A stretch of 62,363 bases of DNA, filler included, from Bipalium vagum (lineage: Eukaryota): assembly GCA_037834085.1 (NCBI GenBank). It is 3 parts of 3 records of this genome, joined end to end, with 100 filler letters (N's around TTAATTAATTAA, not from the genome) between each part and the next. Parts side by side here need not be neighbours in the genome. Positions count along the whole stretch, not along the records: positions 45,746 to 62,363 come from JBBMKC010102525.1; 2 more parts are not named here. One strand, 5' to 3'. Under the pieces are notes generated by a model. The model made no database searches and was not told the origin of the DNA. It worked only from the letters and a program-made list of their open reading frames with translations. A program made the translations under genes and the position numbers. How positions within the stretch are numbered: the stretch's first letter is position 1; the number at the start of each line of letters is the position of its first letter. This document shows, in pieces, positions 8,501 to 62,363 of the stretch.

Positions 8501-8591
8501 CTGTCGCAATGGTGAGTAGCGTTAATTTTGACTTGAGGTTCATTTAAATCTGGTTGCAGTGGTGAACAAATCATTATTTCATCACATCATT

Positions 8592-11500
8592 ATGGATTCA
8601 CCAATGGTTACATTAAGCCCTACTAATCAATCCAAACCAGTTTATTGCACCCCTAATCCTGTACCGAATATTCCCGAAAACAATCAAGTGTCGCTTATTG
8701 ATTATCGATGCGCAAAAATCGCTGCTTTTACTGTTGAGGGTCGTCAACTGATCTGTTTACCACAGGCGTTTGAATTATTCCTGAAACATTTGGTCGGTGG
8801 GTTGCATACAGTGTATACGAAATTGAAACGGCTTGAAATTGTACCGGTTGTTTGTAATGTGGAACAGGTGAGAATTCTGCGTGGTCTCGGAGCTATTCAA
8901 CCAGGGGTAAATCGATGTAAACTGATTGCGCCAAAGGAGTTTGATATCTTATTCGAAGATTGCACCAATTCAAGGTAAGGTATTGACAGGACAAATGTTA
9001 TTTTTGTTGAATAATTGGTTGATTTTCTTTCCAAAACATTTATTTGCTATTCAAAATTGGTACTCATGTTGTAATAGAGCAATTAACAAATATTTGAGAC
9101 TATTTGAGTTTCTACTCCCCGTTACCAAGAAGCAATAATGAATATATACATTAACTGGATATTCGATTTCGAGTTAACCAGTACTTGCGACTAGTAACGC
9201 CTTCTTACTTTTAATAATTAATGCATATTTGTTGATCTTTGCCTGGAATATTACTTGGAGTAAACTCTTAATATTTGCTTTTGTTGTTATATTAAATAAT
9301 CGAAATTTACTCATTAAAATATTCGATTACATTTCGAAATCCTCAATTATAACATGATTATTTTCATTCACTATAACCAGGACCAGAGAATTCTACGATT
9401 GTTAAATGTATTGTTAATATTTTATATTTTTCATATTAAATTATACAAAAGTATACAATTCTAGAACTTAGATCCAAGACTCCTTTTTGGTCAACGAAAT
9501 ATATCTAATCGATTGTGATAAATACAATCTTGAGAAATTCGTTGACAGAACTCCTTTAAAAATGAATATTTAATATTAAAATTAAATCCTTTTATATTTT
9601 ATTTTTACATGGAGAAAAACTTTTGGTAACAGAAAAATAAAATAATTTATTAAAAAATTTATTTTATAAAAATTTCATAGTTGATATTACGCAAAGTCAC
9701 TCAAACAAAAATACATTTCTTTCCACAAGGAAATTCAAGAACTGTTTGATAATATATATTAAAATATATAATAAAATAATAATACTAGGATGAAAAATGT
9801 TTTCCCATGAAATTCTCATCATTCTCAATTATTTTTCCTCTCATCCATATTTTATTATTCTTAGATATATAAATTAGTTTAGAAGAGAAAAAGTCAAAAT
9901 ATTAATCGCAATTTTTGTATTTTGAACTTGATAAAGATGTTGATTCCTTTAATGAATTTTCAACATCAAAAATTGCAGAAAACAATAAAATCAATCATAC
10001 ATTTCAGTGCCAGACCTGGGAGACCTTCTAAACGTGCTACGCTTCTTCCTGGAGATCTTAATATGTCTGAATCCATCAAAAGAACACACTACGATTTAGT
10101 AAACGATTGCATAAAATCTGGAGACTCAATAAATTCTTCATACCGATTATCATGTATTTATATTGAATAAAATGATTATAATCAAAACCTCATTGTAGAT
10201 GATGATGAAAAACGAATTTTCCTCCGAAATACGTTAGCACAGCACGGTTTCTGTCCTATTATACCTCCAAATTTGGGCTTCAGCTCAATGTTACCTTTTG
10301 GAATGGCAGGATCAATATTAAATCTTTTCCCTCATAATCAGTCCATTATAAAACAATTTTCAAATTTACCATCAATTAATAGAATAACACAAAAAGATCA
10401 AGCCTTGATCAATAAATCAAACTACTCAAAACTGAACAATTCCTTAATAATTCCAGGTCTCAACAAAGCAACAATAGATTGCAGTAAACAACCTTCACTT
10501 CTCATTATCATGAAATAATACCTTTTATTCAGACCTCAACTTGAACAATCAGTTTGATAACTCACTAATGTTGAATAACTTCAAAACTAACTTTGAAGAG
10601 AAGGACTCGATAAAGTAAGACTATAATAATATGAAAACAAATAACAATATATATTATTTAAGGTTATTGTCTCCTTCAAGTCTACCAAGTAAGATTTTTT
10701 GTTATCATTTTTTAAAATTTTTTTTTGATGAGTTGGAATTATAAAGTAAATAATAATTAATATTTACACAATAGATAAATCATCCGAAACAAATCTCAAC
10801 AAATCAAAGTCCTGCTTGTTTTCCGTAGACAATTTAGTTTTCGAAGGGAACTCAGAATCGAACATGGACTTGAATCCCTCTGTTTCAACTAATGAAAGCT
10901 TTACTAATGTTACAATCTCTTCGACAACGAGCACCAGTCCGGAAAACTTTGGAATGGGTTAATTTTTTAAAGCTTTATTGATCATTTATTTTCTTAAATA
11001 TATAGAAAAAGTCAACAAATTTCTCAGTAAAGAACAAGAATTTGTAAGACTTTTTCTACAGCATCAAATGAAAAGTAATAATAATAATATAAAACATATT
11101 TATATAGTATTTTTATCAGATAATAATGATGACAAGAATAAGCAATATGTTTGTGATCCAGTGAGAGAATTTTGGAAGATGAACATCAATATGAAACTTA
11201 ACCAAGCAAATCCCATGTATAATCCTGGTTTGTCGGAGTCTATGTCAAATGCTGGTGCAGACTGTAATACGAATTCATTCAACAATAACGTCACTGCACA
11301 ATCTTCGCAGCACTCCAATACAGAATGCAATTTGGAAATGCAGAAGAATTCAGATTTTCTATTTCCAGTTAAGAAAACAAGTCCTTTCATGATATCACAA
11401 GGACTTTCCTGGTTATTTCCTTCGGACAATACATCATTGAATAATTCACAAATGACACAATCCAGAATGAAATTATTTTCAACTACGAACAGTTTGCAAG

Positions 11501-18465: not shown

Positions 18466-19756
18466 TACTATCTTCAAAAAGCAAGGTAACTTATAAATGA
18501 GAAACTCAGATAGATGTTGGAGTCCAAAACATGTTATTTCTATATTTCCACAACACCCATCTATATTTTTGACGAATTTCACTTTGATATGTTAAATAAA
18601 AAATAAGCAGCAGTTGTTTATTTACATCAATTAATTGACCATTTTACGATTTTTCAAAATATCTATTACAGAGCAAAAAAGTTGCATTAAATTTTGTTCA
18701 AGAAATGAAATCAATGCAACCAAATCTTTTCAAATGATGCAGAGAGCAGTTAGTGATCAATGCTTATCCAGAAAAAATATATTCGAGTGATATAAATTTT
18801 TCGGAGAAGGTTCTGAATACATAGAAGATGAAGCTGAAGATGATAACAAAAGGAAATGTGCAAAAAATAAGGACAAAGTTTTGGAAAATTGAGATCTCAC
18901 AGTAAAAGAGCTTATAGATGATGTAGGCATATCTATAGATTCAGTGATTGCAATTTTAAATGGCGTATTGAACCTAAAACGTTTTTCAGATAAGCTGATA
19001 CCAAATGATTTGATTTTTTGTAAAAACAGCATCGTGTTGATGTTGCTATAGAGATACTGAAGTAAGTAGAAAATGACCCAACATTCATCAAGTGTATTAT
19101 TATTGGTGATGAGGCATTGGTTTGCCAGTTTGATATGATGACAAAGCAACAGTCCGTTGAATGGCGAACTCACGATAAACCAAGACCTAAAATAGTTCGT
19201 CGACCGCAATCAAATATCAAGACCCTGTTAACAGTTTTTATAGATTATTGTGGTGTAGTTCATCATAAATTTCTTGCAGAAAGTTGTAAGGTAAATAAAG
19301 ATTATTATTTATAAGTTATGCGTCATTTACATAAGGCATTTCGTCAAAAAAGACCAGATTTGTGACTGGACAATTCATGGTTTTTACACCACTTCAACGC
19401 CTATTCTCATAATGCATTATTATTTGTGACATTTTATTCAAAAATTCAAATTTTACTTTGCATGCAGTATATTCTCCAGATCTTTCGACTTTTTTCTGTT
19501 CAATCTATTAAAGAAATCACTTCTATGAACCGGATTTGATTCGGTTGAATCGATAAAACAAAAATCGAAAGACGAACTTATGAACACTCTGAGAATTGAT
19601 TTTCAAGTGTTTTCTGAATTGATTCGACGTTGGCGCATGTGTATTGCAACAGGAGAAGAGTAGACAAAATAAAATTTTGAAGTAGACAAAATAAATTTTG
19701 GTGATTAAATAAATATTGTTTTATTTTGATCGACACCTTAATTTTTGAACATAGCA
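18466..19756 (+). mobile_element. Full-length (~1.29 kb) decayed mariner element
   Basis: TIR pair TACTATCTTCAAAAAGCAAGGT / TGCTATGTTCAAAAATTAAGGT. Transposase pieces IKFCSRNEINATKSFQMM, IIGDEALVCQFDMMTKQQSVEWRTHDKPRPK…LLTVFIDYCGVVHHKFL, WFLHH, YSPDL, with stops and frameshifts. Confidence 0.9.
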
Positions 19757-20002
19757 TATTTCAATTATATACTAATAGATAGTATTATCTTTTGGAGTGT
19801 AAAAATTTATTATAAAACGTTTTTATGATTTTATTAGATTAATTAATAATTAATTATATAGTGAAAACGTGTTTATTCGATAAGTAGAGGAGCATAAAAT
19901 GTTTGGATAAGACTGAGAATAAAAACTCAGAAAATTGGTTTCAAGATCTATGTGAAAATTTTTTTAAGGTTTTAATACCAAAGAAATTTATTTAACGTTG
20001 TA

Positions 20003-20380
20003 TATTGGGTTGTCTCAAGAGTTCTACAAGTGTTAAATACAACTTATATTTTTTGTTAAATATGATTATAAAAAATCTCAACGCTATACATCAAATGAGT
20101 CGTTAAATTTGATCTTCGGATTTTTTTGAATGACCGCCGTTTTCAATCAATTGATAAAATCAAAGAAGCATGTCAAGAGTCATTTGATTTAAAGGAACCT
20201 GAATGGTATTTTGAACAGTTTTGAAAGCTTGCTGACTTATGGTAGAAAGTGGAAAATAATGATGTATAGTATTTTATTAACATTGTTATAAATCTTAATA
20301 ATAAAATAAATTTATAATTTAAATAAATTTTGATTAATAATTAAATTTTTCTATTGCAGAAATTTTGGAAAAACCTAATA
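20003..20380 (+). mobile_element. Non-autonomous, MITE-like mariner derivative (378 bp)
   Basis: TIRs TATTGGGTTGTCTCAAGAGTTCTACAA / TATTAGGTTTTTCCAAAATTTCTGCAA; inside only the transposase C-terminus FLNDRRFQSIDKIKEACQESFDLKEPEWYF. Confidence 0.75.
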
Positions 20381-20589
20381 TTTGAAGATTTCTTTTGATT
20401 ATTAATTAAGCACTCACTAAATGGACTTTCTTTTAACTTATATTTTATTATTTTGTATAAATTTTAATTCCCATAAAACATTTCGTACATAATAATAATT
20501 AAAGTTACCATGAATGAAGATTTTCATAATGAAGATTTTCGTTCTTTATAGATATTTTTTATATTATTTTTATCCATTTTCTCTTCTTA

Positions 20590-21225
20590 ATTAAGAAATG
20601 GATATTCTTTGACGACACCAGAGGTTCCGGGGAGTGGGTATACAAAGATGCTCAACTAAGCACTGTTGCAAAGCAAGGAATTACTCCAAGGAAAGTAATG
20701 ATAATCTTCTGGTGGTCTGTGGCCGGTATTATTCATTATCATTTTTTGGATTTTGGAGAAACTGTCACAATGGAATCATATTGTGGTCAACTTGATGCTT
20801 GTCATGAAAAACTGAAGCAAAACGACCCTGCCTTGGTGAATCGCAACCGCCCTTACTTTTTCACAAAAATACGCGGCCACATATTGCTAAATTAATTCTA
20901 CAAAAATTACATGATCTTAATTACAAAACTTATCTTATATCCCAGATATATCTCCCACAGATTATCATCTGTTCCTGTCACTTGACAATTTCCTGCGAAA
21001 TAATAAGTTTAAAAATCATGATAATGTTTATCATACCTTCGCCTCTTTTATTGAATTCCGTGACCAGTACAATTTCAGAAACGGTATAAAGAAACTCGTA
21101 GGACGTTGGCAAATTGTTGCAGATGCCAATGGTGCATATTTTGATTAATAAAATTTTTTTGAATGACATTTCAACTTTTGATTTGTGAGATGAAAAAGCC
21201 ATAATACTTTTCCCTCAACCAAATA
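20590..21225 (+). mobile_element. 5'-truncated mariner, cecropia (Hsmar1-like) type
   Basis: KKWIFFDD…PRKVMIIFWWSVAGIIHYHFLDFGETVT…PALVNR…PDISPTDYHLFLSLDNFL…GRWQIVADANGAYFD*; 3' TIR at ~21199-21225. Confidence 0.85.
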
Positions 21226-38000: not shown

Positions 38001-41000
38001 TTTTAACCCAATTGTTGTGAATGAATTCAGCATTTAAAAATAGTACACACCAACATCAGATAAACAGATATGTTAAATGTTTGGAACTTTTTCAAGGATG
38101 ATCAACTTGATATTTATATAGATAAAAATTCTTAAATGGATACAGGGGATATTGGACGTACGTGCTTACTTATATATTCATGTAATCTGTCGATAATTTT
38201 ACATAAATGATGAGGAAATGCAGGAACCGTCAAATACAATTAGTACCGGTAATTTGAAGAAAGAATTTGAAGGATGAAAATTTTTTTTAATTCAATATAA
38301 TTTTCTTAAATTCAAAATTTAATTCAAAGCAAATAATAGTTTAATATTGGATCAGCTAATAATATATGATATCAATAATACGTTACTTTTGACAAATAAT
38401 AAACATTGATTTTCACTTTAATTTTCTAAACATTATTATTTAAATATAAATGTGAAAAAAATAGTTTCCTTTGTAATTCTTTTGGTGTTTTTTCTTACTA
38501 ACTATGAAAAAACTTTCATGGATTTTAAATAATTTTTAATAAAATCACATGAAATTTTGATAACTTCAATATAACGTACTAGCAATACAAAGAGCAGGAT
38601 CTTCGTCATATTTATCTGGACAATCATATTCTTCATCGCATATAAAATCAAAGCTTAAGCAAAGACCAGATTTGCAAGGCCATGGCCTACTTTCGGGGCA
38701 TACATTTCCAGGATTTCTTTTTATTCCTAAAATATTTGTTCATAAAATAAATAAATAAATTTATGAAAAGAAAATATGAATAATTTTTGCAAATTAATGA
38801 CACAGATATTGCAAAATTCGATCTTTTGGTATCTGAAATGCCAAGTCCAGAATTTAAAATTTCCTCGAAAATTTGCATAACCACGTGCAAAATTATGTTA
38901 ATGTTAAAGACGATTATTTTGAAAAAAAATATTTTTTGGTATTTTATTGATGTATAAAAATAAATTTTCTTATTGTAAATAAAGGATGACTTTTAATGAT
39001 TGCATGAAACTTTCTTAGGCATAGTTCAGTTAATTCCAATCTAAAAAACTCAAAATTTGGCAGAACTATATTTTATTATATAACAATCAATTTATTCACA
39101 AAAGATTTTCGAAGAAACATCCTTTGGCTTTCAAACAGGCTTTCAAACGTTTGGGAAAGTTATCCACAATTGCCGCTAATTCTGCAGTAGGAAATGAGTC
39201 TCAAGCTTTTTGAATATCGGTTTGTAATGTCTCCAAGTTGTTGTAGGAGTTCTTAAGTTTCTGTTCCATGATTCCCCAAATAGAGTAATTCATAGGATTT
39301 AAATCAGGCGAATTAGAAAGTCACGTATTTTTGTCCCAAAATGATGGAAAAAGTTCCTGGCACAACGCAATAGTGCTTGCAGCAGTCCTGTTGTAATGAT
39401 CAGTTGTCTTCACCAAAATATGTTTTAGCCCAAGGGTATAATACAGCTTTCAAAATGTCTTCTTAGTATCTTCTTGCATTCATTTTTACACCTCTTTCTA
39501 CAAAGACCAAAGGAGTTTTGCCAGAACCCGTTATACCATCCCAAACCAATACAGATTTTGGAAAACGACTTCGCATTACAATTGCGCGGTCTTTGGTACC
39601 TTTTTTCAGCAATTGTCTGTTATTCTGTGTGTTGCGACTGCCTTCTACCGTAAATATCTTTTCATCTGTAAACAATGTCAATTTATGGGGGCCCTGTGAA
39701 GTCAACTGCAACATTATCTTACATTTTTCCAATCGATTTTTCATCATCTTCGGATTTAGTGTTTGAGCTTTGCAGAATTTGTAAGAATAAAGCCCTAGAT
39801 CACTTTTCACAATTTTGTCAACAGAAGTTCTTCTGATATTCATTGATTTTGCTAAAGTTCGCTTTGAAATTGTTACATTGCGCTTAATGCGTTTTCTGAT
39901 GCGTTCCCGTATGTTTCTTGTAGTAGTAGTGACTTTTCTACCTCTTCCAGAACAGTCTGAATCAGATCCAAGCTCTACAAACCTCTTTATTGCCCGCGAG
40001 ACTGTTGATTGTGGAACTTTCAGCAGTTTTACTATAGCCGACTGTTACATTCTTTGTTTGTATAAATTCCAATATAGCAGTCCGAAGATGATTAAGTTTC
40101 ATTTTATTAAATATTATTAACAAAATAAGCAATCTATATTTATAAACGATTATCAATACAATAAGAATTAAAATTACATTAATACAACTTTCATATCATT
40201 AATCATCAGGTGAGCAAATTAAAATTACATTAATACAACTTTCATATCATTAATCATCAGGTGATGGGACTTGTTCAAAATAATATGCAATAATTAAAAG
40301 CCACCGTGTACTTAAATTTCCCCTTTGACAGGTAATTATTTTTGTCAGTTTTAATGAATTCTTATTTAATTATATTAACAAATTTTCAATGCCAACGTTA
40401 CATGTTTGGCTAATAAAATGCTGCGATTTTTCTTTTCTTTTCAATTAACAATTTATTATTAAATATTTACAAATAAATAAAAAACGTGTAACATAATTAG
40501 AGCATATTTAATTGTTAATTTCAAAATAAATTTTTTTTAGATTGATGGATGTTTAATTAACGTTTTTCAAATGAAAAGGACAATTTAAAAATTTTAAGCT
40601 TAAGACATCTTTCATTAAAAAACTTTCCATTAAATTTCATAAACTGTCGCCAACAAGAAGGTAACTTATAAATTCCAGTGTGATAAAAGTCTTATTTTCA
40701 AGAGATGAAGAATTTCTCAAAGACATCTTTCATAATGTCGTACTTGCTGAAGATACCTTCTTTGACGTTGCAAATAAAAACTAAATTAATTTTATAAAAT
40801 ATTAAAAATTAAAAATAAAGTTATTTAAAATAATTTATTTTTTAAATAAATATTAAAAATTAAAAATATTTTTATTTACAATTGAATAAATATATTTAAT
40901 TAAATATTTTAATAATTTCTAGTAAAAATCGACTCAAAACTGTTATTTTAAGTAAATTTTACTAACAAATTAAAGTCTAAGGTATTTAAAAACTAAAAGC

Positions 41001-46249: not shown

Positions 46250-46810
46250 ATGGAAATTGAAAAAATTGAAAAACCAACTGCTCCTATTTACCCTAATTTA
46301 CAAAATAAGTTCATCTGTTAAGATGATGAAGGATTTTCTAATCAAACGAAGTTCATGGAGGATCTTCAATCCTCTAATCCATTAATTAATCCAGCGGAGC
46401 TTTATGATAATCCTATTATCATGCAATTGGAAAAAATAAAAATAGAAACTTTTATGAATGAGAAAAAATTATTAGAAAATTTATTACAACATTAAAAAAA
46501 ATTTTAATTTAAATATACTAAAATAGATTCATTTTAAAGATATGAATGTATTTGTATTGGAGATGTTTTAGGAATTGGATCAACGATTATGACTGCTGTA
46601 CCAACAATTGGAACTAGTTTATTAATATATATTCCTCTTTGAACTAGAATTTTAGGATCTGCAGAGTTATTTATTGGAGAAACAATTAGTAGAGGAATTA
46701 CTTCTAAACGAAAAAGAATTTGCAGAGAAATTTGTGCATCAATAGAAAATTCAATTTATAAAGTTTATTTATTTCAGATGAAAGCTTTAGATTAGAAGAT
46801 TAAAATAATT
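46250..46810 (+). pseudogene. Polinton membrane-associated protein (adintovirus 'GasderminX'-like), copy 1, decayed
   Basis: MEIEKIEKPTAPIYPNLQ…GIGSTIMTAVPTIGTSLLIY…LFIGETISRGITSKRKRICREIC…YLFQMKAL; colinear with the ORF at 60875-61288. Confidence 0.6.
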
Positions 46811-47204
46811 CATTTAAAGTAGGTATAAAATACATGTTTTATTTTTAAAAAAATGGATGCGAATGAAAATTTTAATAATCTTAAAAAACAAATTGAACAA
46901 TTAAAAAACTAGCTACAGTAAAAAATAAATTTGAAACTAATAAATTAGATCAATGGAAAGAAGAAAGAGGATTAACAATTGATTTAGATAAATTTTATAA
47001 ACTTGTTGTAGATAATGCAACAAAATTAAATGAAACTTAAAAAATTAGATGAAATCAAAACTAATCAAACGACAAATGTTGCAAAGATAAAAGATGAAGA
47101 TAATATTTTTACACCAAAAGATTTTGAAGTTACTGATGTATATAAAATTGTTGAAGAGAAATTTATTTAAGGCTTAAGAAATATTTAATATTATTTTAAT
47201 TTAT

Positions 47205-49035
47205 TAAGAAATATTTAACGCTTTTTCATTTTCTAACATTTTTTCATTTAATGAATTTCCTGGTAATCTTTCAAAAATTTCTTTAAAAATATTTGATTCG
47301 AATTTTTGTCTTAATGCTGCAACTCTTCCTCCTTTTACAGATTTTCTTTTAAACTTTCTAATAAATGGATTAGTATGAGAATAAATTTTTGTAGATTCTG
47401 ATAAGGATAAAATTTGTAAAGATTTATACCAAGCTTTTCTTGTTAAACCTGGTGCGGTAAAACAACATCTCGTATCTAATCCAAATGAATTTTAAAAATA
47501 GAATTAAATTTATAAACAAGAATTGCTAAAGATAGAACATCATTATTAAATATGGAAGCCATTCATTTTTTCTTTCTTCATAATTATTTAAATCTACCGA
47601 TGTTATTTCAAAATCTTGTCTTTTAAATTCTGGGGGTAAATAAAATGATTCACACCAATTCTTTAAAGATGATTTTAGAAATTGATAAGAACATCTGAAA
47701 TGAATTTTAAATTTTATTATTTCCACAACTTCCTCTTTAAACCTTTTTCTGTTAAAATTTTTTCTCAACTTTTTTAAAAGGGATTATTAAACTAATTATT
47801 TCTGAACTTGTTTTTAAGAATGGTTTATTTAATATTCTTAAGTTATTTGCTAAGACTAAATAATTATCAAATCCTGAATCATTGTGTGCAATTAATAAAA
47901 TATCATTTTTTGGTGTCGGTTCTCCTTTTTTATATTTTTTAACACATGACATATTTAAAATATTTTCTATCATTTCCTCTATACAATTTTTCCAATAAAA
48001 TATTTTATTTGATCTTTTACTCGATTTTCCAAATATGAAATATTTAAACATTCACCTGGTCCTTTGTAATTAATTCTTTATTTAATTTTAATAATTTTTC
48101 TACATTCGTAAAAGCGCAACCATAAGGTACTTGTTTTCCATTTTCAATTGTTGCTGTTTCCAAATCCCATACATAAACCTTGTGTGGTTCAAAATTTTCA
48201 TGAACGAAATTTTTAAATTCTGATATTTGTTTTATATCTTCTTCTTCACATGTTTTCCAAGATAATTTGTAATTTTCTTCAATTTCTTGAATAGATTCAT
48301 TTATATTTTATCTATTGACTAAACAGTAGTGTTTTTTATAATTATAAAAACAATATTTGAAAATTGATTTTGAGAATTTCTTACATAAATATGTCTATCT
48401 TTTTTTGAATAATATTGAATATTTGTTTGAAAACATTTTTTAAATTCTGAAATTCTTGCATTTGTCATTATTCCTCTTCTCTCTTTATAGTGATTTAAAA
48501 ATTTAATAAATAATTGTGTAATATCTTCGTCTCAAATTTTATTATTTTAAAGACAATAGCATTTTTAAAAACATAAATTGTCACTCGGTATAAAACAATA
48601 TTTTCCAAAATACTCATTGACTTTTTTAATATATCATTTGAACCCATTACAGATTCGAATTGAATAACATTCCTAAATCTGGTATCCAACTTGCGATTCC
48701 TTTAAATTCCAATTCTTCCATATCTAAATTTTCTTGACTTGAATTTAAGAAACCATTAACCATTTGTTTATTATAATAATTTTTAATATCTTCTCCATTC
48801 TTTTTATCAATAAAATCATTAATTCTAAGAGTACCAATAAAATCATTTTCAAAGACTTAGAAATATAAATTAGATTTTAGTTAAAACATTAAAAAATGAA
48901 ATAAGATTTTTATAAACATGATCATTATTTGAATTTATTCTTTCTGTTGATCTAAGTGAATTATTTAATAAATCAATAGTTTCATCAATTGAAACATTTA
49001 ATAAATTCGAATCACTTAATCATTCTCGAATTCAT
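47205..49035 (-). pseudogene. Protein-primed family B DNA polymerase, N-terminal and exonuclease part (polymerase palm missing)
   Basis: ExoI VYVWDLETA, ExoII LIAHNDSGFDNYLVL, FRCSYQFLKSSLKNWCESF, ExoIII YL..NDVLSL, CFTAPGL, pre-motif SVKGGRV; frameshifted; ends before the DxxSLYP motif. Confidence 0.85.
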
Positions 49036-49089
49036 TTTTTTAAAGAAAATTTAACTTTTTTAAAATTTTTAATTTTTAATTTATTTTAT

Positions 49090-51281
49090 TTTGTATCTTC
49101 TTCCATATGATGGAGATATAATTACTCTTGTCCTTGGAATTGCTGAGCAACTTGAGCTTTTTGTTGACGAAGATTTTGGAGTCTCCACATTTCTCCCACG
49201 GTTTCGAGACTTTTGTCCCCAAAAGAAGGTTGAGGCATGTGAAGAATTACGTGTTCACCATTGGGAGTGCGGGCAATAACGCTTCTATTTCGAATGACTT
49301 TCTTTGAAGAGATAGTATAGAGGTAGGAATTGTCAAGTTGTGGGGTCTGTGTTTCCTTTTTATTTTTTACCTTTAAATTTAGTTAATGGGGCATCAACAT
49401 CTAATATGTTGGTGATTGGTAGTGGTCGAAATGCATATGTAGTGTTTGCAACTTCAATGTTTATGTTTTCTGTGTGTGTTTCTGTAGGAAAAAACAATTT
49501 CTTAGCCCGTCGAACCAAACTCGGAAAACGCATGCGTTTCCGATTTTTCTTTGGTTTAGGCGTTGCTATGGGACTTGGTATATTATCTGGGAGTGAGATT
49601 GAATCAAGAGGAATTTTTTATGCTTGTCGTAAGGGTGGAGGTGGTGCTGGTAGATCAAATGGTCCATTTTCATTATCATCTATCGTCAAAATACAACCTT
49701 CGTATTCTGATGCGTCAAAAGAGATATTGGATGCCATTGATACAAGATTATGGTCTATAGCTGGGATATCACTGGTTGCTTTGATAGTATGTGGACACTG
49801 TGTTTGGTACTCTTTAACAATTTCTGTATCAGCCAATGGACTTCCTGTTGCTATTTTGTCATCAAATATTCTTTCTACTACAATTACAAAAAGGACAGTA
49901 GGATGGAGGTGGAGGAGGTGGATTTTCAATTTTTTCATTGATTCGGTTATCCTCAGCTATTGCGTTAGTGGTTTGCAATTCTCTTAGGGTATTTCATTCT
50001 ATTTTAAACCAAATTTCCCGGACGTAATGCGTGTTTTTATAGCATTGCAAGTCTCTTCAAACTGGACCTCTTTTGGTTGTAGATGCTAATTCTGGGACTT
50101 GTAGTTTGGTTGCGGTATTTGTAATTTTAGGATGCCCTTAGGTGATATCTTCATCATATTGCGTAAATATGGTAACATTTGAATGTCGATGTATCCTGCT
50201 AGAGTTTGAGTGGGTACTCTGCCTAGGGTTAATATATATTCCACCGGATTGGCTATTAGTACTTTTTCATTAAGGGCTTCTTTTAGGTATTCATATACAA
50301 GTGGTTCGTCAAGGCTGCTGATAAAGGCCTTGTCGACAATGCCTGTTTTTTGGTAGTTCATCTTAAAATACGCTCGTGGTGCTACTATGTGTCTTACAAT
50401 ATCTTGGCCACTGTAATCCATAACATGCATTGCTAATAAGACATGTTTGGATTGGTCAGTACCTAGTTTGTATGTAGTGAGGTTAGCGAAAACTACGTGG
50501 GATTGTATATCTTAAACTTATTTCTTAAACTTAGTATGGCTCTCTTGCTCTTAGAGCTTTAAATATTGAATCTTCATCATGCTGTAATTTGGATATCTTC
50601 TATGACTAAGACGGTATTCTGTTTCAGTGTTTCGAAACACAGGGACCGTGCTAAGCCAAGTAGATTGTTGCATTTTATTGTGTAGTACATATCTAATGTG
50701 ACTGGTTCAGCTATTCTTCATAATCGCAGGATAATGGAGTTAATGCACACATGCATGTGTATAGTCTCTCTTTCATATAATTGCTTAAAATGGGAAATAA
50801 CGTCTGCTAGGTAAAAGTATTTAGGGTGTAATATTTAGTGTATATACATGATTCTGCAACCTGTAGAGGAAAATTTGCAAGAGTTGGGAATATGTGTGTG
50901 TTCGAAACTAACACTGTTTACTTCTATGATGCCGGTTTGATATTTTAAATAGGCTAAGCATTCCTGGTAGGGGGTTTTATTAAATTTCTCAAATTGGATG
51001 ATGGCATCGGGTTTTGCTTCAGGGAAATATTTACTTAGTGGTATGTTAAGGGTTTTCTGCGCTGATGAGTATGAATTACTGGTTTGAGATTTGGAAGTGG
51101 AGTAGAAATTGCATTGTCGGGAAACAGTGAAACCAAGTTGTGTAGATTGCGACTTTTTGGACATGATTTGGCCTGAAATTAAGTAAAAACTAAGCACCAT
51201 TATAACATTTAAGATGAATAGATGTGTTTTACAGAATAAAAGAAAACATAATAATGAAATATCATTATTTGCTTCGCTCAT
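49090..51281 (-). pseudogene. Accessory ORF B (~700 codons, frameshifted): hydrophobic N-terminus, Pro-rich and basic C-terminal half
   Basis: ORF pieces 50835-51281, 50086-50430 and 49618-49938 are colinear; LFILNVIMVLSFYLISG leader; ENPPPPPPSY; PAPPPPLR; PKPKKNRKRMR. Confidence 0.5.
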
Positions 51282-51287
51282 TAATTG

Positions 51288-51950
51288 TCATAATTCTGTC
51301 ATTTCATACATTACAGGTTCTATTTTTTCAATAGTAGTACACAACTTTTTCTTAGCTATAAATTTTACCAAATAAAATCCAAAAAGGAATAGACTAATCA
51401 GGGAAATGAAACAGAAAATCACTATTAGTACCAAAAAGAATGGTTAGATAGGGGAATTCAAATCAAGAAAGATATCACGCATTATTTTATCATAATAGTT
51501 TTCTCTATTATTATTGTTAATGCTTTCAATAAAGAGATGATTCGTGGTAGCCTTTTAGAATCGTATTGAAATGCTCTGAGGATATTTTATTGATTATATT
51601 AGAATTATTTATTATTAATGGTAGGAAAAACGTATCTATTAACCACCAATTTAGTCGGTAATATATGTATTGTTCAAATTCTATCATGTGTCTACCATCT
51701 GCTAAATTATTTAAAACTATACTGGTATTGTTTTTAAATAATGCTCCGTATGATTTTTTGTGAGTATAAGGTTAATATATGGTTCAGATTATTTTCTCTA
51801 GATGGTGTACTACATATCTCTATATCCTGTTTTCCATAGAAGTTAAAAGAGGTAACTTTAAATTGTGAAATTTGACTTTATGTCTGATGAAACAGTATTG
51901 TAATCATGTATTGTAATATTGATAGGGTATTGTTGAGTTTTGTCAAGATA
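51288..51950 (-). pseudogene. Accessory ORF A: type-I membrane (env-like) protein remnant
   Basis: Ectodomain pieces with N-x-S/T sequons (NNT, NNS), then …DLNSPI*PFFLVLIVIFCFISLISLFLFGFYLV KFIAKKK LCTTIEKIEPVMYEMTEL*. Confidence 0.5.
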
Positions 51951-52149
51951 ACGTAATAGGATAGTTTAGGAGTTTGGTTTTAGGTGTGTAAAGGATATCT
52001 GTGAATCTTTTGTCAGAACCGAAACGCTAATATCAGTGGATGTTTTTAATTCAACTAGAATGGCAATGGTACGTAAGGGTGTAATGATGGCGGTATTGGT
52101 GTGAAACGCTATCAACTTAAAAGTTTTTACTTGTATACAACATAGGATT

Positions 52150-54340
52150 TTTTACTTTTTTCATAGTTTTCTTTCATTGCTTCTTGGTTATGTTTGATGG
52201 ATAGACCAGCCTTGCTCAATGCATCTTGAATTCTTTCTTTCATGATGGTTACGTAACCTGGTTACTCCATGTATTGGCTAATAGGTTTTTGAAAAATAAG
52301 ATCAATTGGCATGTTGGAATTTCTTAAATACATTAGATAAAATGGAATAAAGCCTGTTCCTAAATGAACGGCATTTCGATAGGCGAATAGGTATGATGGA
52401 ATATGAATATCCCAATCATTTTTTTAGTGTTTACGTATGAGGCTATCATGTTAGTTAAGGTATAATTAAATCTTTCTACCAAGCCATCAGTTTGTGGATA
52501 ATAGGGAGTTGTATTTAATTTTAATATGTTAAAATATGCGTTAATAGAGGCCAGTAATTCACTCAGAAACTCTTTTCCGCGGTCTGTGAGTAGCTTTCGT
52601 GGTACTCTATACCGGAATATGATATGCTCAACAAAAATTTTAGAGATAGTGTCTGCTTTGTGATTTGGCATGGAAAAAGCCTCTTGCCATTTAGTAAGAT
52701 AATCACTCACAACTAATATATAAACATTTCCTGAAATAGTTTGAGGAAGGGGTCCTACAATATCCATGGCTATCATTTCCATGCGAGCAGGGGGTACTGG
52801 CATAGGTTTAAGGGGTGCTTTTAATTTTCTTCCTGTGTTTCTACGGGTTTGGCAAATTTTACACGTGTTACCTCATTGCTTAATATCTTTTATCATATTT
52901 GGCCAATAATATTTTTGACTTATATGGGAACGGGTTTTACGATTTGATAGATGTTCACCGAGAGTTCCATCATGATATTGAACTAACACTGACTCTCGTA
53001 GGCTTTCTGGTACAAAAATGACTGAGTTCAGGTGCTCCTTATACTTGAGTAAACCTTCATCCCAATGAAGATTTTTTAATAACTTTGCATATGTATTTGT
53101 TGCAAGTGATGGGTTTTTTATATAAATATTAATTTTTTGTATTTCTGAGTCTTCTTTTATTACTTGTTTAAGATCGTCAAGGGTATTGAGTTTTTTGTTT
53201 GACTCATAAGATATACTTCAGTCATTCTGGATAGTGCATCTGCATTGTCGTTCGCCTTTCCTTTGCGGTAAATGATTTTATAATTGTATTCCTGTAATTT
53301 GAGTGACCAACGGATAAGGACCTACGGATTATGTATCTCTGTGCTTTTCTAAGTAAGCCAAGGTATTGTGATCAGTATATAAAATAAATTCTCGACCCCA
53401 TAAATGGGTTTAGAATTTTTTAACTCCGAAAATGACATTCTAACTCTATTACTGCATAATGCTTTTTATGGGATTTAAGACTTTTACTAGCTTAAGCAAT
53501 TGCGTAGTCTCTATTTTCATAATCTTTAAGCCTAAAACTGCTCCAATAGCAGTTCAACTTGCATCACACATAGGTTCAAATCATCGCCTAGGATCAGGGT
53601 AGCGTAGAATTGGTGATGATATTAAGAATTTTTTTAATTCGTCAAATGCTGTTTGATGATCAAGATTCCATTTAAATGTTTGTTCCTTTTTTAATTTTTT
53701 GTTAAGGGATGCTGCAATTTGAGCGAAATTTCTAACAAATCTTCGGTAATAGTTTGCTAAACCGAGAAATATTTGAACTCGCTTGGGTGTTTTGGGGGCA
53801 ATTGCATTTTTGACTTTTTCAATTATTTCGGGATCAGGTTCTATGCCATTTTGTGATATTATGTGGCCTATATATTTCATTGAATTTTTTCCCAATTCGC
53901 ACTTGGTGGGTTTTTTTTAAAAACCTGCTACTTTGATTCGTTTTAATACTTCTTTCATATCTTTCATGTGAGTTTCAAAGTCAGGAGAAAATCAACGATG
54001 TCGTCTATATACACCATTTTTGGATAGAGAAATCTAGGATTAAACCTGGAATTTTAGATAGGATATCCATGCCGATTATACATTCAAGTTCGTTATTTTC
54101 CATTACTTTTAATGTATGATATATATCGTAACCCATTGTTCGAATAATGCTTTTGCATGTTCATAGCAAGGGTACTGATTTACCATCTACGCATATTACT
54201 GATATTGGTGATGTATTTACAGTGGCTTCTTTTCTGTATTTAAAATTTGGGCGTCAATAAGGGAAATGTGTGCACCAGTATTTACCAGAGCCAGAACTGT
54301 GTTTATTGACTTTGATTGTAATCATAGGTCGAGTTTTGTT
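52150..54340 (-). pseudogene. Pol: aspartic protease, 5'-deleted RT, RNase H, integrase
   Basis: ALVNTGAHISLI (DTG to NTG); VYIDDI…KCE…YIGHIIS..GIEPDP…FLGLANYYRRFV; CDAS..AIGAVL; YTDH; ADALSR; H..H…YYWPNM…CKIC; AMDIVGPLP…LTDRGKEF…YYPQTDGLVERFN. Confidence 0.92.
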
Positions 54341-54469
54341 GATTATGAAAGAATATCTTACGCAATTTATACTAGGCGGTTACTATTTGCATGATTAAAA
54401 TAAAAAAAAATATATCTATTTGATCAAATAGTAATGGGACTTGTTGCATACTGATTGTGCCATTATATT

Positions 54470-54650
54470 CGGCTGTAGCCAATAAAGTAATGATTTCCGT
54501 TGATTGCTTATCTTTGACCATTTCTAACGCTGTTTGTTCATATATATTGCGATAAAATAGGTTTATATCAGGTCTTTTGAATAATATTTTAACTATTTCT
54601 GCATTTACTTCATAACGACTAGCAAGGTGGAGGGGTGTTTCATCATTTAA
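54470..54650 (-). pseudogene. Ankyrin-repeat segment inside the Gypsy polyprotein region
   Basis: NDETPLHLASRYEVNAEIVKILFKRPDINLFYRNIYEQTALEMVKDKQSTEIITLL: one full TPLHLA…EIVKIL…DIN repeat and a second TAL…EIITLL repeat. Confidence 0.8.
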
Positions 54651-54656
54651 ATATTC

Positions 54657-55810
54657 CTGTTTAAATACGCCTGTTTAAATACGCCTGTTTAAATACGCCT
54701 GTTTAAATACGCCTGTTTAAATACGCCTGTTTAAATACGCCTGTTTNNNNNNNNNNNNNNNNNNNNNNNNNNNNNNNNNNNNNNNNNNNNNNNNNNNNNN
54801 NNNNNNNNNNNNNNNNNNNNNNNNNNNNNNNNNNNNNNNNNNNNNNAAATGCAAGATTCTCTTTTACTTTATGTAATGTATCAGTTTTNNNNNNNNNNNN
54901 NNNNNNNNNNNNNNNNNNNNNNNNNNNNNNNNNNNNNNNNNNNNNNNNNNNNNNNNNNNNNNNNNNNNNNNNNNNNNNNNNNNNNNNNCCTGTTTAAATA
55001 CGCCTGTTTAAATGCAAGATTCTCTTTTACTTTATGTAATGTATCAGTTTTTGTTACTTGTTTTATGTATGGTATACTGTTTGCTATGGAATTCGGTTTT
55101 TTAATTTTGATTGTTGGTTTCTGGGTTTCTATTTCAGAACCCGAAACTTTATCGGTTTGTATTGTTTGGTTTCGTGCTTTTGATATTATTGATTTATCTA
55201 TGGGTGGAATTGTGACATATTCTGGGATATTAAGCTCATTATTTTAAATATTATTTTAAATATTCCTGTTTAAATACGCCTGTTTAAATACGCCTGTTTA
55301 AATGCAAGATTCTCTTTTACTTTATGTAATGTATCAGTTTTTGTTACTTGTTTTATGTATGGTATACTGTTTGCTATGGAATTCGGTTTTTTAATTTTGA
55401 TTGTTGGTTTCTGGGTTTCTATTTCAGAACCCGAAACTTTATCGGTTTGTATTGTTTGGTTTCGTGCTTTTGATATTATTGATTTATCTATGGGTGGAAT
55501 TGTGACATATTCTGGGATATTAAGCTCATTATTTTAAATATTATTTTAAATATTCCTGTTTAAATACGCCTGTTTAAATGCAAGATTCTCTTTTACTTTA
55601 TGTAATGTATCAGTTTTTGTTACTTGTTTTATGTATGGTATACTGTTTGCTATGGAATTCGGTTTTTTAATTTTGATTGTTGGTTTCTGGGTTTCTATTT
55701 CAGAACCCGAAACTTTATCGGTTTGTATTGTTTGGTTTCGTGCTTTTGATATTATTGATTTATCTATGGGTGGAATTGTGACATATTCTGGGATATTAAG
55801 CTCATTATTT
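54657..55810. repeat. 14-bp tandem array (CCTGTTTAAATACG)n plus three identical ~280-bp copies around two N gaps
   Basis: Identical ORF translations at 54849, 55355 and 55631; copies abut gaps, so probably assembly stutter. Confidence 0.85.
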
Positions 55811-57154
55811 TCCTCTGATTCTGGTGCATCTATATCTGTATGCCAATATTGGGGGTTCATTTGGGCTATTGGTTGATAATCTTGTTCTAGAATTTCTTGA
55901 AGTATTACATCTGTTTCGTCCATTTCCTGCCATGTGGATATTTTCCTGTTTTTCTGCTTGCATTGGTTTTTCTTTCTCCGATTCCATAGGAACTTCACAA
56001 TACTCTGGTTCAACATTGTCTGAATTGATTTGTGTTTCGTTTAATGTATCTGTCAAATCAATTATTTCGGTTAACATTGTTTGTTTTTGAGTACCATGGT
56101 AGTATACTTGAATTTTATTCGTTTTTCGGGGATTACATTCACAATCTATCAAATATTCATCATCATCGATTAATTTTCCAAATATTTATGGTAATAAGGT
56201 ATTTGGAAATTGTAGTTTTTCTACAGCCTTTTTTCGTAATTTATGAGTTTTACTATTAATGAGCATTATGTAAGTTTCGTTAGTATAATCCTGCATTTGT
56301 AATTGAACCGTTATTGTTTTATATCATTCTTGCTTTTTCTTATAGCTTGACCGTATTTTCTTAAGATAATTTCTAACCTCTTTGATAAACTACTGAAAAT
56401 TTTGCCCAATTTCGAAGTTTTTCAACTATTTTTTCTAGTGTCTTGACAGCTATTGGCATCCGCGCTATTTCATTTAGTATAGTTCTAATTTCATCATAAT
56501 CCAAATTGGTTTTTATTATTTCTTACTATTAGACTTCTATAAGACTATTATCTTGATTGAGTTTTGTCTGATAATAATATAAGTTAATTGGTCTTTTTAG
56601 ACATTTCTGTACACCAGTAATTATTTCATGTGCCATGGTTTTGGTTGTGGCTACATTTCGAACCATTAGATTATCTGGATATTGATAATATATGGTGAAT
56701 GTAGTTTCTATTGATGGCCAATCCCTTCCTAATTTTTGTAATAATTGCAACTCTATCGGAGAACTAACTTTATGATGTCGTAAGAAGTGTTTCACCTCTT
56801 CGATATTGTCAATTGGGGTTTCTCTTGTTATCCATTTTTTGCTATTTCATTGGCATTTCTAACTTCTATTACTCTATCAGAAATTATTGTAATGTGATTT
56901 AATATATCTTGTTCGGGATCTCCTAATCGTTCTACTTTGGCATATTCTTCAGTAAGGAGTGATTCTACCCTTTCAATATGTGACATGCGTACTTCAATTG
57001 TATCGTTGTTTTCCTCATTGTCATTTACAATATTTGTTTTAGGTGTCATTAAGGAAAAAATTCTCTGTAAGTATCCAAATTTTCATCAAATAAAACATTT
57101 AACTTTTCTCTCAACATTCACTTGTTGTCGTTGGGATGAATTAAAATTTATACT

Positions 57155-58105
57155 TCAACAAACATCTTTCACATGTCCTCTTTTTCCGCATTGTAAGCAT
57201 TGCAAATTATGCGCTCTACATTCGTTTGTATTATGGTTCCGACGCGCACATTTGGTACATTGTTTATTATTATTATTATAATCAAATTGCTTGTTTCCAT
57301 TGTTACACTCAAATTGTTTATGTCCACTATTATTATAATTATTTCTATTTTGGTACTGATTCATTCGTGTTCTCATTTGGTTACGTTAGTTATTTCCATC
57401 TAAAACATTATAAGGTTTAGTGCAATATTCATTAAATCGGACTTTTATCTATCGGGCATTCTCGGGGTCCATAAACCATTTCATTACATTTATAACATTG
57501 CATTTGATTACTATTATTTACTTAATTGGTGATTTTGGCATTAATCCAGCGGTCTGTGGACTCTTATTTATTACATTTACTGTTTTCATTTCAACAGCAG
57601 AATTATTGAATTATTTGCTCAAATGCTTCATGTCTATATAGCATGATAGCTGCTTTAATTTCATATCTTAATCCAGACCATCATTGGTCTTTTACTATAA
57701 CTTTAGTATTTTCGTCCCATTTATCTTGTAGACCGAAAGCTCTCTGAGCTACGGTTTTTAAATTGTGTATACTCTGATACTGTTTCATTCATTTTTTTGC
57801 TTTAAGCTATAAAATTGTTGCCTGAATAATTGGCCTATGTCACCTCTGAAAATTTGTTCCTCTAAAGCGGATTTAACTGATGTCCAATTATCATCTTTTC
57901 CGTTGGCTACTATATCTAAATATGTGTCTCTTGCTCTATTCTTTAAGTAAATGGATAGTCGGTTCATTTTTATTCTTTCTGTAAAACCATATGCGCGGTT
58001 TTTAACATAATAATTTGATAAAAAATCGGGTAATTCGGTTGGGTTTCCACTGTATGTATCCATTTTAATATAACCAGTATATTTTACCACTGTCATCATG
58101 ATCAC
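57155..58105 (-). pseudogene. Gag with two CCHC zinc knuckles
   Basis: DTYSGNPTELPDFLSNY…LSIYLKNRARDTY…W..VKSALEEQ…LKQK (retrotransposon gag); CTKCARRNHNTNEC and CLQCGKRGHVKDVC. Confidence 0.9.
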
Positions 58106-58866
58106 TTTCTGTCATTTTGATTAATTTACTTTTATTAATAGTTTCGGTTAAACGAGAACGAGTTATTAAAGGCTTTTCAACTATTAAACTTTGCTTTTAT
58201 TATTAACACGTATTATGAATTGATAAAAAATTTTCATCACATTATTTAGCTTCTTTTAAGGTGATTTTATTTTGATGCAAATAAAAATTGAACCATGATC
58301 TCTTTTACATTATTACTACGAAAAATTATATTTTTAACTTACAAAATAAGGAATGTTATAAGAAATCTCATTTTAATTTGTTCCTTTATTATATTTTCAA
58401 TGAAATCATAATTTTGTCACTAATTTATTGCAAATTTAGTAGATTTTAAAAATTTTCAAAATATTTTAAGTTACAAAATAATGTATTTAGAATAGATAAA
58501 CCAAAATGACCCTGGGGGTATGAGAACGGAATTTTAACCGTTTAATCATAGGCTTTTCATTTGAAATTATGAAACAGCAGATATTGGAAACTTTGGAAAC
58601 CTAACAACTTTGTCACCTTTTCTTTGAGAAAATATAATCATTATCTATATATTTATTACAAATTTTGTACAATGACAAAGTTCTTCAACGACGCTCAATT
58701 TGAACCGATTTTTCTTCAAAGTTTTCAAAGACTGTAGCAAGAAACTGTACACTTTCCATTATAGATTTCTTCATGACCAGGCCAACAGAACGAAATTAAA
58801 AAAAATTAAAGCTTATAATGAACAGGATCAAAAATATTCAAAATAATAAAACGACTGAAAAAAAAT

Positions 58867-59975: not shown

Positions 59976-60874
59976 AAAGTTTTTTTAAAAATTCAAATTA
60001 ATCTCTTTTATAATATTATTTAAACAATATTTTGATTAATTAATATATTAAAATGCAACAATTTTATTAAAAATAATATTTTAAACTAATTAATTACAAA
60101 TGAAATAACATGTAAATTAAATAATCAAGTAATAAATTTTATAAATATTTCATATCAAAATATGATTTTCAATAGCTTTCTTTTAAAAATATTAAACGTC
60201 ATTAAAAATAGTAAATTTTTAATATTTTTTTTAATTAAGTTTAATTAATTTTAAATTAAAAAAATATTTTTCTATTATTAATTTTAAATCTTAAGTTAAT
60301 TCAAATAATTTTTCATCATTTGGTTTTGGATCATCTGGATTACTATATTTTAAAAATGCTTTTTCATTTTCTTTAATAATTAAAAATGATATTTCATTTG
60401 TTTTTAATGTGTTACCTATAATTGATGGAGTAATAGTTGATGTTAAATTAGAAGTATTTAAATCCAAAGTTAGAGATGGTGAAATAGGTTGTATACTACA
60501 ATCTATTGAAGGTTTTTTATCATGGAATTTGGACTACACCGATTCTAAACAACTTTGAGGTTTATTTATTTTCTTTATAATTTTTTTTTCATTTTTTATG
60601 CTTAGAGCATCAGTAACTGGTTTTTGAAAATATTTTAAATCTTGTTCTGATCTTCTTTCTGCTTTCCATTCATTTAATTGATTAGTTTCAAATTTATTTT
60701 ATCTAATAAATTTTTTAATATATTTAATATATATTTAAATTCTTTTTTTTAATTAAAACTATTTCACTTTTTTAATTTTTTACTCTTTCTCTTTATATTC
60801 TTTATTTAACTCTTGTTTCATTTCCTTTAAACTTCTTTTTTTCAATTTTTAATAATATTTCCTGATTTTATTTT

Positions 60875-61395
60875 TTAGATATTATCTTTACATCCAGTAA
60901 TTATTATTTTCGCTTCTTCAATTTCTTCATCGGATAAAATTTTATCTTCTATTGCTTTCATTTGAAATGAATAAAGTTTATTAATTGACGATTTTATTGT
61001 TTCACAAATTTTTCTACATATCTTTTTCTCTTTTGAAGTAACTCCTATACTAGTTGTTTCTCCGATAAATAAATTAAGAGCTCCAAAACTTGCAGTTCCA
61101 AAAGGAGAATAAATTAATAAGCCAGTTCCAAATGTTGGTATTCCTGTCATAATAGCAGTTCCAAGTCTTAAAATTCCTTCAATAAAAATACTTCCTAATT
61201 TTAAATAAGTATCTATAGAAAAATCTATATATTTAACTTTAAATTTCTTATAATGTTTTAATAAATCCTCTAAAAACTTTTTTCTCATTTATAAAATTTT
61301 TTTAGATCGGTCAAAGACCTTAAAAATTGTTCTTCATCTTCGTAAATAAATTTATTATTTTGAATACATGGTAAATAGGGACAGTTTGTTTTTCT
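60875..61395 (-). pseudogene. Polinton membrane-associated protein ('GasderminX'-like), copy 2
   Basis: ORF 60875-61288 has Gly-rich hydrophobic segments (LGTAIMTGIPTFGTGLLIYSPFGTASFGALNLFIG) and a KAIEDKILSDEE end; a frameshifted N-terminal part (EKQTVPIY…NKFIYEDE) lies upstream. Confidence 0.65.
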
Positions 61396-61859
61396 GTATG
61401 TCTTTCTTATAATTGTTCACTATTTAATGTATCCAATTTAGGTCGGACTCCAACTCTTAGGTGGTGCAAATAATAACAATCAGTAAAGCAGCAATTTGTA
61501 TATATCACACAATCACAAAAATACAGAATGATAATCAAAAGTCTGGGATCACAATTAATGTCTGAAATGTTTCACAAACTTTCAAGATCAAACTACTCCA
61601 CAAAATAAAATATAATCAAACAACAATAAAATCAAATAAATAATTAGAATAATAAGTATATCAAACAGCAATGTCAAATAAAAAGTCAATTATAATATAA
61701 TGTTTAATTCAAAGTCTAATTAAAACAAAATATTACAAAATATCAAAATTAATAATTACTTTTTTTTAAAAAAATAAATAAAGATAAAAGAAAATAGAAC
61801 AGTATTACGGTTTATCTTCCGCTAAAACTCCCGAGTTATCGTCTGATCTCACCTCATAA

Positions 61860-62363
61860 ATATTATTCTCACCATTTAAATCTATTAATCCATATACATT
61901 TGGATTAGTAAAATAAATTTCATTTTTAATAAATATTTCATCCGTCCATTTTGCTGTATATCCCTTATCGAATTTATTTTTATATTTAAAAATTCTTACC
62001 CTATCTAAAACTTTATACTTTGAGTTATTTTTATTATTATCATTAATATTATTCAAACTTTGTGGATTTTCACTAGCTTCTTTAGGTGTAAATTTAATCA
62101 TTCTGTGAATGTTATTATTATAATTATCAATTAATTGAGGTAATAAATTTAACCCTTTTCGGTTACCTTGTTCTGTAAACTTTTTGAACATCATATTCTT
62201 TAATGTTTTATTAAATCTTTCAATTACAACAGCTTTAAAGGTTGAATAAATTTCAATTTCATTATCTTTACAAAATTCTTTGAAGATTTTATTGTAGAAT
62301 TCTGTACCTTTATCAACCCATAGTTTATTAGGAATACGTTGATATGTTTCAAATATGTTTTCA
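61860..62363 (-). pseudogene. Polinton c-integrase (rve), partial, C-terminus interrupted
   Basis: PNKLWVDKGTEFYN…KAVVIERFNKTLK…LIDNYNNNIHRMIKFTP…DRVRI.KYKNKFDKGYTAKWTDEIF…YGLIDLNGE. Confidence 0.9.

Follow-up and report, generated by a model that had tools for sequence, protein, structure and literature searches.

The locus raises the question of what this element carries behind its integrase. In the window, the whole 62,363-nt stretch of Bipalium vagum DNA that was analysed, the original prediction placed two accessory ORFs there: a type-I membrane protein (ORF A) and a Pro-rich ORF with a PPxY motif (ORF B). Our overall explanation, to which we give about even chances, is that pol, A, a stop codon and B follow each other in one frame, and that B is a protein of catalytically disabled AlkB-like and ISG20-like folds that would be made by stop-codon readthrough and would act as an RNA-binding shield or adaptor.

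The host element is a decayed animal Ty3/gypsy (Metaviridae) copy on the minus strand. Gag is followed by the order protease, reverse transcriptase, RNase H and integrase, by which Ty3/gypsy elements are recognised. The parts outside the two accessory ORFs are as follows.

57155..58111, minus strand: broken remnant of gag, zinc knuckles included (Pfam Retrotrans_gag E 0.012, zf-CCHC_5 E 6.7e-4)
53230..54360, minus strand: protease, reverse transcriptase and RNase H remnants, broken and partly deleted (RT_RNaseH_2 E 7.2e-5; translation)
52148..53217, minus strand: integrase, zinc-binding part and core (Integrase_H2C2 E 6.7e-15, rve E 5.1e-9)
49188..49197, minus strand: remnant of the polypurine tract, GGGAGAAA, then the TG that opens a truncated 3' LTR (same junction in the relative L001, 5419-5434)

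The reverse transcriptase and RNase H remnants were placed near 53900-53230 (minus strand), and the 53230..54360 remnant holds a motif which we take to be that of a protease. The C-terminal GPF part of the integrase, present in L001, is missing from the window, where the last tblastx match to L001 stops at 52148. No LTR pair or PBS was found in the window; the polypurine tract and TG are present in the window and in L001, which lacks its 5' end. The window has a GC content of about 25%. The 3' region looks more like coding sequence than expected by chance: its four longest stop-free stretches come to 489 aa against a mean of 266, a value reached by none of 1000 dinucleotide shuffles. A codon-usage scan trained on gag and pol traced a single path of frames across the region, which shifts several times.

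Other features of the surroundings were recorded. Between the gag region and the protease lie an ankyrin-repeat fragment at 54372-54674 on the same (minus) strand as the element (Ank_5 E 1.5e-5), which may be an insertion or a captured domain, and, at 54632-55844, three copies of a 276-290-nt repeat with a 14-nt array holding N gaps, which may be partly an assembly artefact. Past the gag zinc knuckles, 55800-57082 (minus strand) contains a further 1.3 kb or so of coding-like sequence with no Pfam match. AT-rich DNA polymerase B remnants (DNA_pol_B_2 E 0.0019) occur at 47200-49080 (minus strand), adjoining the truncated 3' LTR, and at 60300-62363; integrase-like text at the window end is presumably of Polinton/Maverick origin, and 46446-47047 and 60578-61300 are inverted copies, 74-76% alike. 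Elsewhere in the window, exons at 8532-10170 (plus strand) read like what we take to be the animal gene dachshund, on which the assignment of the host to the animals was based, a Tc1/mariner-like transposase remnant (HTH matches) lies at 39463-40044 (minus strand), and further mariner-like pieces lie at 19066-21089.

Comparison with sister copies revealed that the 3' module is repeated. A total of 1028 contigs from run X1 fall on 49110-53300 and cover 30 of 30 bins; 576 of them are less than 90% alike, and X1 is possibly the window's own source, so that it is not independent. One X1 contig without differences spans 51248-52294, which holds the integrase end, ORF A and the ORF A stop. On this evidence the module belongs to a multicopy family and is not a join error. 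Among the 40 listed of 731 differences, seven lie at 50877-51312 and 49251, and six of these fall on third codon positions of the inferred frame; two listed differences inside 51771-51526 are at second codon positions, an outcome that speaks against the inferred frame in that stretch or stems from decay.

A metagenome scan with the integrase yielded 214 candidate stretches and from them one locus, L001, whose integrase is 74% identical to that of the window and whose 3' module is intact. In L001 the integrase, which contains the GPF motif, is followed in the pol frame by a signal-like segment and an ectodomain of about 450 aa; a Ser/Thr-rich stalk, a TM helix and a short tail lead up to a TGA, beyond which lies ORF B. 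ORF B of L001, which follows in the same frame as A after that single TGA, has 709 codons; it reads through the polypurine tract and stops in the first LTR bases (5419-5437), and two related proteins (P0003 and P0008) end in similar Gly-Glu words. The order pol, A, stop, B and polypurine tract is thus shown to be common to two elements, the window and L001, and the linkage of a two-gene 3' module to pol, on which the original prediction depended, is found again in the second element with the same order and frame. Downstream of the polypurine tract, inside or beside the 3' LTR of L001, 8.6 copies of a 64-nt unit (97%) occupy 5977-6525.

Likeness between the two elements is strong in ORF B and weak in ORF A. 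Over residues 69-369 the window ORF B matches that of L001 with z 10.2, 16.7 and 15.7, each unreached in 300 shuffles. ORF A matches at its C-terminal end only, with z 3.3 (51738-51559) and 4.8 (51554-51312), and window 52200-51750 has no significant match to L001 ORF A. The distance from the integrase end to the A stop is 858 nt in the window and 2005 nt in L001, so that about 1.15 kb is missing in the window; the losses comprise the GPF part of the integrase, the signal segment and some of the ectodomain.

51288..52148, minus strand: ORF A remnant with ectodomain end, TM helix (51443-51354), KKK, short tail and stop, frameshifted (alignment to L001 ORF A)

The end of ORF A was found as predicted, on the minus strand: hydrophobic 19-mers (Kyte-Doolittle up to 3.17) begin at 51443, KKK lies at 51353-51345 and the stop at 51290-51288. 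Only in L001 is the type-I anatomy present; the window ORF A lacks a signal peptide. In L001 the protein stands at the env position, in frame with pol, and carries the signal-like segment, five N-glycosylation sequons, three ectodomain Cys, the stalk, the TM helix and the short tail. These features, together with the wide occurrence of env-bearing gypsy elements in animals (PMC13524379), would also fit a genuine fusogen whose class is unrecognised or has diverged greatly, in which case the element would be an enveloped, infectious, errantivirus-like virus with B as a matrix-like protein. We consider this improbable. The F-type env is defined there by a furin site and a hydrophobic fusion peptide, and the gB-type by several conserved cysteine bridges (PMC13524379); L001 ORF A contains no R-x-K/R-R site, no internal hydrophobic peptide and only three ectodomain Cys, Pfam gave no fusogen match for A at E<=10, and the late-domain motif of B is not conserved. 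The original prediction that A resembles no known env therefore agrees with the absence of Pfam fusogen matches and of F-type and gB-type hallmarks. An ectodomain of about 450 aa is also unlike the short protein with a tiny ectodomain that characterises sORF2/FAST. An initial likeness to herpes gB was dropped: neither the PDB nor Pfam supported it, and in L001 the Cys are few and a motif recurs. An internal repeat suspected in ORF A of L001 was not significant (143 of 500 shuffles). In the structural model of L001 the A ectodomain has pLDDT below 50. A role of A in attachment or cell-to-cell passage, rather than as a class I or III fusogen, is conceivable at somewhat under even probability.

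The manner in which B is expressed was considered from the sequence around the A stop, where three features are placed.

51284..51294, minus strand: A/B junction, 11 bases identical to L001 around TGA; TGA-CAA-TTA fits CAR-YYA
51240..51279, minus strand: predicted hairpin 3' of the stop (-11.0 kcal/mol, z -2.5, 13 of 500 shuffles)
51162..51178, minus strand: splice-acceptor-like TTTCAG ending at 51173, then ATG at 51164 (same arrangement in L001: TTACAG at 3410, then Met)

CAR-YYA is a consensus for readthrough (PMC2194720, PMC3159437), and a stop followed by it occurs at 17 of 9610 stop triplets of the window. The eight flanking matches at the junction have p of about 3.5e-5 at a place fixed beforehand by the stop. 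The L001 junction reads TGA-CAA-TGG, which is not the full consensus, and its hairpin 3' of the stop is strong (-23.8 kcal/mol, z -5.0, 0 of 500 shuffles, below all 91 control tiles); that of the window is not outstanding (3 of 72 control tiles have a lower z; z -0.69 over 141 nt). The spacer from TGA to the Met shared by both elements is stop-free in each, as in 3.5% and 3.3% of shuffles. Both elements therefore show a single in-frame stop with a CAR-YYA or UGA-C context and a 3' stem-loop, the window with full CAR-YYA and a weaker hairpin, L001 with a partial context and a strong hairpin. Junction evidence comes from these two elements only, with genomic context from L001 and none from P0003, P0004, P0005 or P0008, and the case of Tca2 (PMC2194720) warns against equating an in-frame stop followed by a 3' structure with readthrough. 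The original prediction of an ORF B start 7 nt past the A stop holds in that an ATG is present at 51281, but this ATG has no counterpart in L001.

Other observations also count against readthrough: the hydrophobic spacer could misplace B, and an acceptor-like AG stands shortly before the Met in both elements. Alternatively, a spliced subgenomic RNA may be the sole source of B, which would then begin at the Met past the acceptor and be a free anti-silencing or RNA-protecting protein without relation to the membrane protein; the hydrophobic leader noted earlier would be a translated T-rich intron end. The ATG 9 nt past TTTCAG in the window, the ATG past TTACAG in L001 and a similar Phe/Ile-rich stretch before a Met in P0003 agree with this, as do the typical expression of ORF3s from spliced messages (PMC5408684) and the separate AlkB ORF of orchid gypsy elements (PMC9289625). 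Exclusive splicing leaves unexplained the shared frame, the stop-free spacer, the 11 identical bases, the hairpin and the third-position differences in the spacer, and we regard it as unlikely. Readthrough is favoured as the way in which B is made, with fair confidence, and both routes may be used.

The composition of B was examined next to its relatives.

50589..51044, minus strand: first domain of ORF B, predicted to be an AlkB/2OG-Fe(II)-type double-stranded beta-helix, lacking HxD (z 10.2 and 16.7 to L001 ORF B; L001 model fold)
49934..50565, minus strand: ORF B domain 2, predicted ISG20-like DEDDh fold without catalytic residues, frameshift near 50150-50120 (z 15.7 to L001; profile, Foldseek, Z, atlas)
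49880..49927, minus strand: ENPPPPPPSYCPFCNC, start of a variable linker, in frame, not conserved (PPSY at 49909-49898)
49440..49880, minus strand: variable acidic, Pro-rich and basic linker (PKPKKNRKRMR at 49560-49528; no significant match to L001)
49188..49440, minus strand: short frameshifted domain at the C-terminus, which ends at the polypurine tract (z 3.7 to P0005 for 49387-49274; alignment A1)

The description of ORF B as Pro-rich fits the variable linker, but the core of the ORF consists of two folds derived from enzymes. For the C-terminal domain, eight other frame and relative pairs were not significant. On the plus strand, a 223-aa stop-free frame at 49316-49987, antisense to the linker, was taken as a shadow of ORF B.

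The family of ORF B comprises five other proteins besides that of the window, at about 25-35% identity. A search of 1.84 billion representatives gave four matches at E<=0.001, of which P0003, P0004 and P0005, matching the central domain, are ORF B relatives (E 1e-12 to 2e-4); P0006, an LRR protein matching another query stretch at E 3e-4, was dropped as chance. A search with the L001 protein returned itself and P0008, which is close to L001, among 2318 candidates. None of these relatives carries a name. P0008 was left out of alignments A2-A4 as its N-terminal half is mis-called. Word-based protein searches with window pieces gave none among 1919 and none among 261 candidates, scans of viral contigs gave nothing, and prokaryote genomes gave 0 of 10 stretches. 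Neither Pfam nor NCBIfam contained a family at useful E for A or B pieces of the window or relatives.

Domain 2 is predicted, with near certainty, to have an ISG20-like (DnaQ-like) fold, and three lines of support point to it. The six-row profile A2 retrieved from the PDB a single sequence at E<=10, ISG20L2, with E 3.5e-5. Foldseek with the L001 model returned ISG20L2, DnaQ and ISG20 at E 6e-6 (best 6.4e-6) to 1e-4, with cupin/2OG proteins at about 1e-3, and L001 residues 762-930 align to ISG20 with Z 10.1 (rmsd 3.8, 149 aligned, VIA). In the atlas, a 141-aa window piece lies near the arenavirus nucleoprotein (top match, 0.93) and the RNase_T and DEDDh_C clusters. The assignment of domain 1 to the AlkB/2OG-type beta-helix is probably correct and comes from one model: L001 residues 561-732 match the bacterial prolyl hydroxylase 5iax (Z 9.7, rmsd 4.2, 146 aligned, VIA), P4H 2jij (Z 8.9) and ALKBH1 (Z 8.3), where VIA scores of Z 7-8 are common. 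That A-X-B model of L001, built from a six-row alignment, has a mean pLDDT of 46.8 and pTM of 0.30, with the B domains mostly at pLDDT 60-89. The atlas held no usable match for domain 1, single-sequence PDB searches gave chance matches only, and a single-sequence model of the 141-aa piece (pLDDT 33) had no match at Z>=5.

Neither domain is predicted to be catalytic, a conclusion that we hold with good confidence. Exo I sits on strand 1 of the DEDDh fold, and its acidic pair was found on the first strand in none of five members; the Exo II Asp and Exo III His are absent in comparison with 7yw5. For domain 1, an aligned HxD/E was found in none of four members, and the sole HxD of L001 falls within a predicted helix and has no counterpart in the other members; HxD..H is the iron-binding motif of AlkB (PMC9289625). 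One His of domain 1 is kept in four of four members and another in three of four, and domain 2 has one invariant Asp; domain 1 may bind metal. These residues and the intact folds would allow B to keep enzyme activity through substitute residues and to trim or demethylate RNA, as debated for Maelstrom, which lacks DEDD and is yet discussed as a nuclease (PMC7968707). Against this, the alignment holds no DEDD, no HxD and no conserved ECHC-type set, and we judge an active B to be quite improbable. A disabled pair of folds is the reading carried forward below.

The PPxY of the original prediction was found as PPSY at 49909-49898, slightly off the earlier 49898-49922, and the NLS-like PKPKKNRKRMR is present at 49560-49528 (minus strand). 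PPSY is in the family frame of ORF B, just behind the nuclease-like domain: its frame aligns with the last helix of that domain in two of three relatives (z 3.2 and 3.7; 1.7 in the third), and both stops of this frame upstream of the motif coincide with sites where most sister-copy contigs read another letter. A role of PPSY in recruiting Nedd4-type ligases for budding, for which the true frame, the disordered-looking linker and a rare run of five prolines (1 of 1000 shuffles) would speak, is nevertheless very improbable. The motif is absent at that place in all four relatives covering it (P0002, P0003, P0005 and P0008), and five members contain no PTAP or YPxL. A PPxY arises in 317 of 1000 dinucleotide shuffles (32%), and four occur in the six frames of the window. 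Among the relatives a PPxY occurs solely in P0003, where it is part of the folded nuclease-like domain. Conservation in relatives is also lacking for CPFC and the NLS-like string, and the PPxY appears to have no family-wide part.

Overall, these results are consistent with the following course of events. A long message would give a pol-A polyprotein, from which signal peptidase, acting at the internal signal-like segment, would probably free A as a surface glycoprotein. A minority of ribosomes is rather likely to read the TGA through and to make B as a cytosolic extension of A, and a spliced message may also give free B. B could bind element RNA or the particle, shield the RNA from host surveillance and hold it at A-bearing membranes, and A could act in attachment or cell-to-cell passage; to each of these last two steps we assign a little less than an even chance. 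That the whole constitutes an undescribed animal gypsy lineage that spreads between cells with a non-fusogen surface protein, whose readthrough tail is an AlkB-like/ISG20-like pseudo-enzyme gripping and shielding RNA at the membrane, is a speculative proposal that we think rather unlikely. If true, the module would be a new means of transmission and counter-defence, assembled from a pair of RNA-surveillance enzymes that have been disabled. Surveys of env-bearing animal gypsy elements seek F-type or gB-type env and would miss the A-B group, which would add a third kind of 3' membrane protein and a candidate readthrough site in an animal LTR element. The two folds united in ORF B are ones that viruses turn against the RNA defence of their hosts, and they have persisted across a long divergence (about 25-35% identity) despite lost active sites. 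With L001, a natural relative that is intact, direct tests of readthrough, of RNA binding and of what A does become possible.

Additional ORFs of the DEDD or AlkB kind have been described, as has env readthrough, each on its own. No description of the combined module was found in the literature searched; Repbase, subscription papers and the supplements of PMC13524379 lie outside that scope and could affect the judgement of novelty. Rotifer elements are known to carry DEDDy ORF3s and small TM ORF3s (PMC5408684, PMC5718144). The gypsy-like Juno and Vesta of bdelloid rotifers (PMC5408684) carry a DEDD-fold or TM ORF after pol, as here, but their nuclease is of the DEDDy/RNase D kind, keeps its residues intact and lacks a TM partner, whereas B is ISG20-like DEDDh with lost residues, fused to a beta-helix and placed behind a large type-I protein. 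The AlkB m6A demethylase ORF of orchid Ty3/gypsy elements (PMC9289625) likewise places a 2OG-Fe(II)-type fold in an extra gypsy ORF; it is an ALKBH5-like, active plant protein in a separate ORF with HxD..H intact, whereas the B likeness is at fold level only, in an animal element without HxD. The DEDDh fold is also used in or against host RNA defence by Maelstrom and by the arenavirus nucleoprotein exonuclease (PMC7968707), but the arenavirus domain is active and zinc-bound, whereas B is nearer ISG20/ISG20L2 by profile and fold and has no ECHC set.

For ORF A, errantiviruses with F-type or gB-type env (PMC13524379) are comparable, being animal gypsy elements with a type-I membrane protein behind pol; unlike their env, A has no furin site, fusion peptide or cysteine bridges, is in frame with pol and has a further ORF behind it. 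The Drosophila MDG1-group sORF1 and sORF2 (PMC11952523) resemble the present case in being two accessory ORFs, one a membrane protein, in elements without canonical env, but sORF2 is a short FAST-like protein and A has about 520 aa. A 3' ORF past a single in-frame stop in a leaky context, as at the A/B junction, is found in the pol/env stop suppression of SIRE1 (PMC2829016) and in CAR-YYA or UGA plus stem-loop signals (PMC2194720, PMC3159437). SIRE1 is a plant copia element in which suppression leads from pol to env, whereas in this animal gypsy element it would lead from a membrane protein to a cytosolic pseudo-enzyme.
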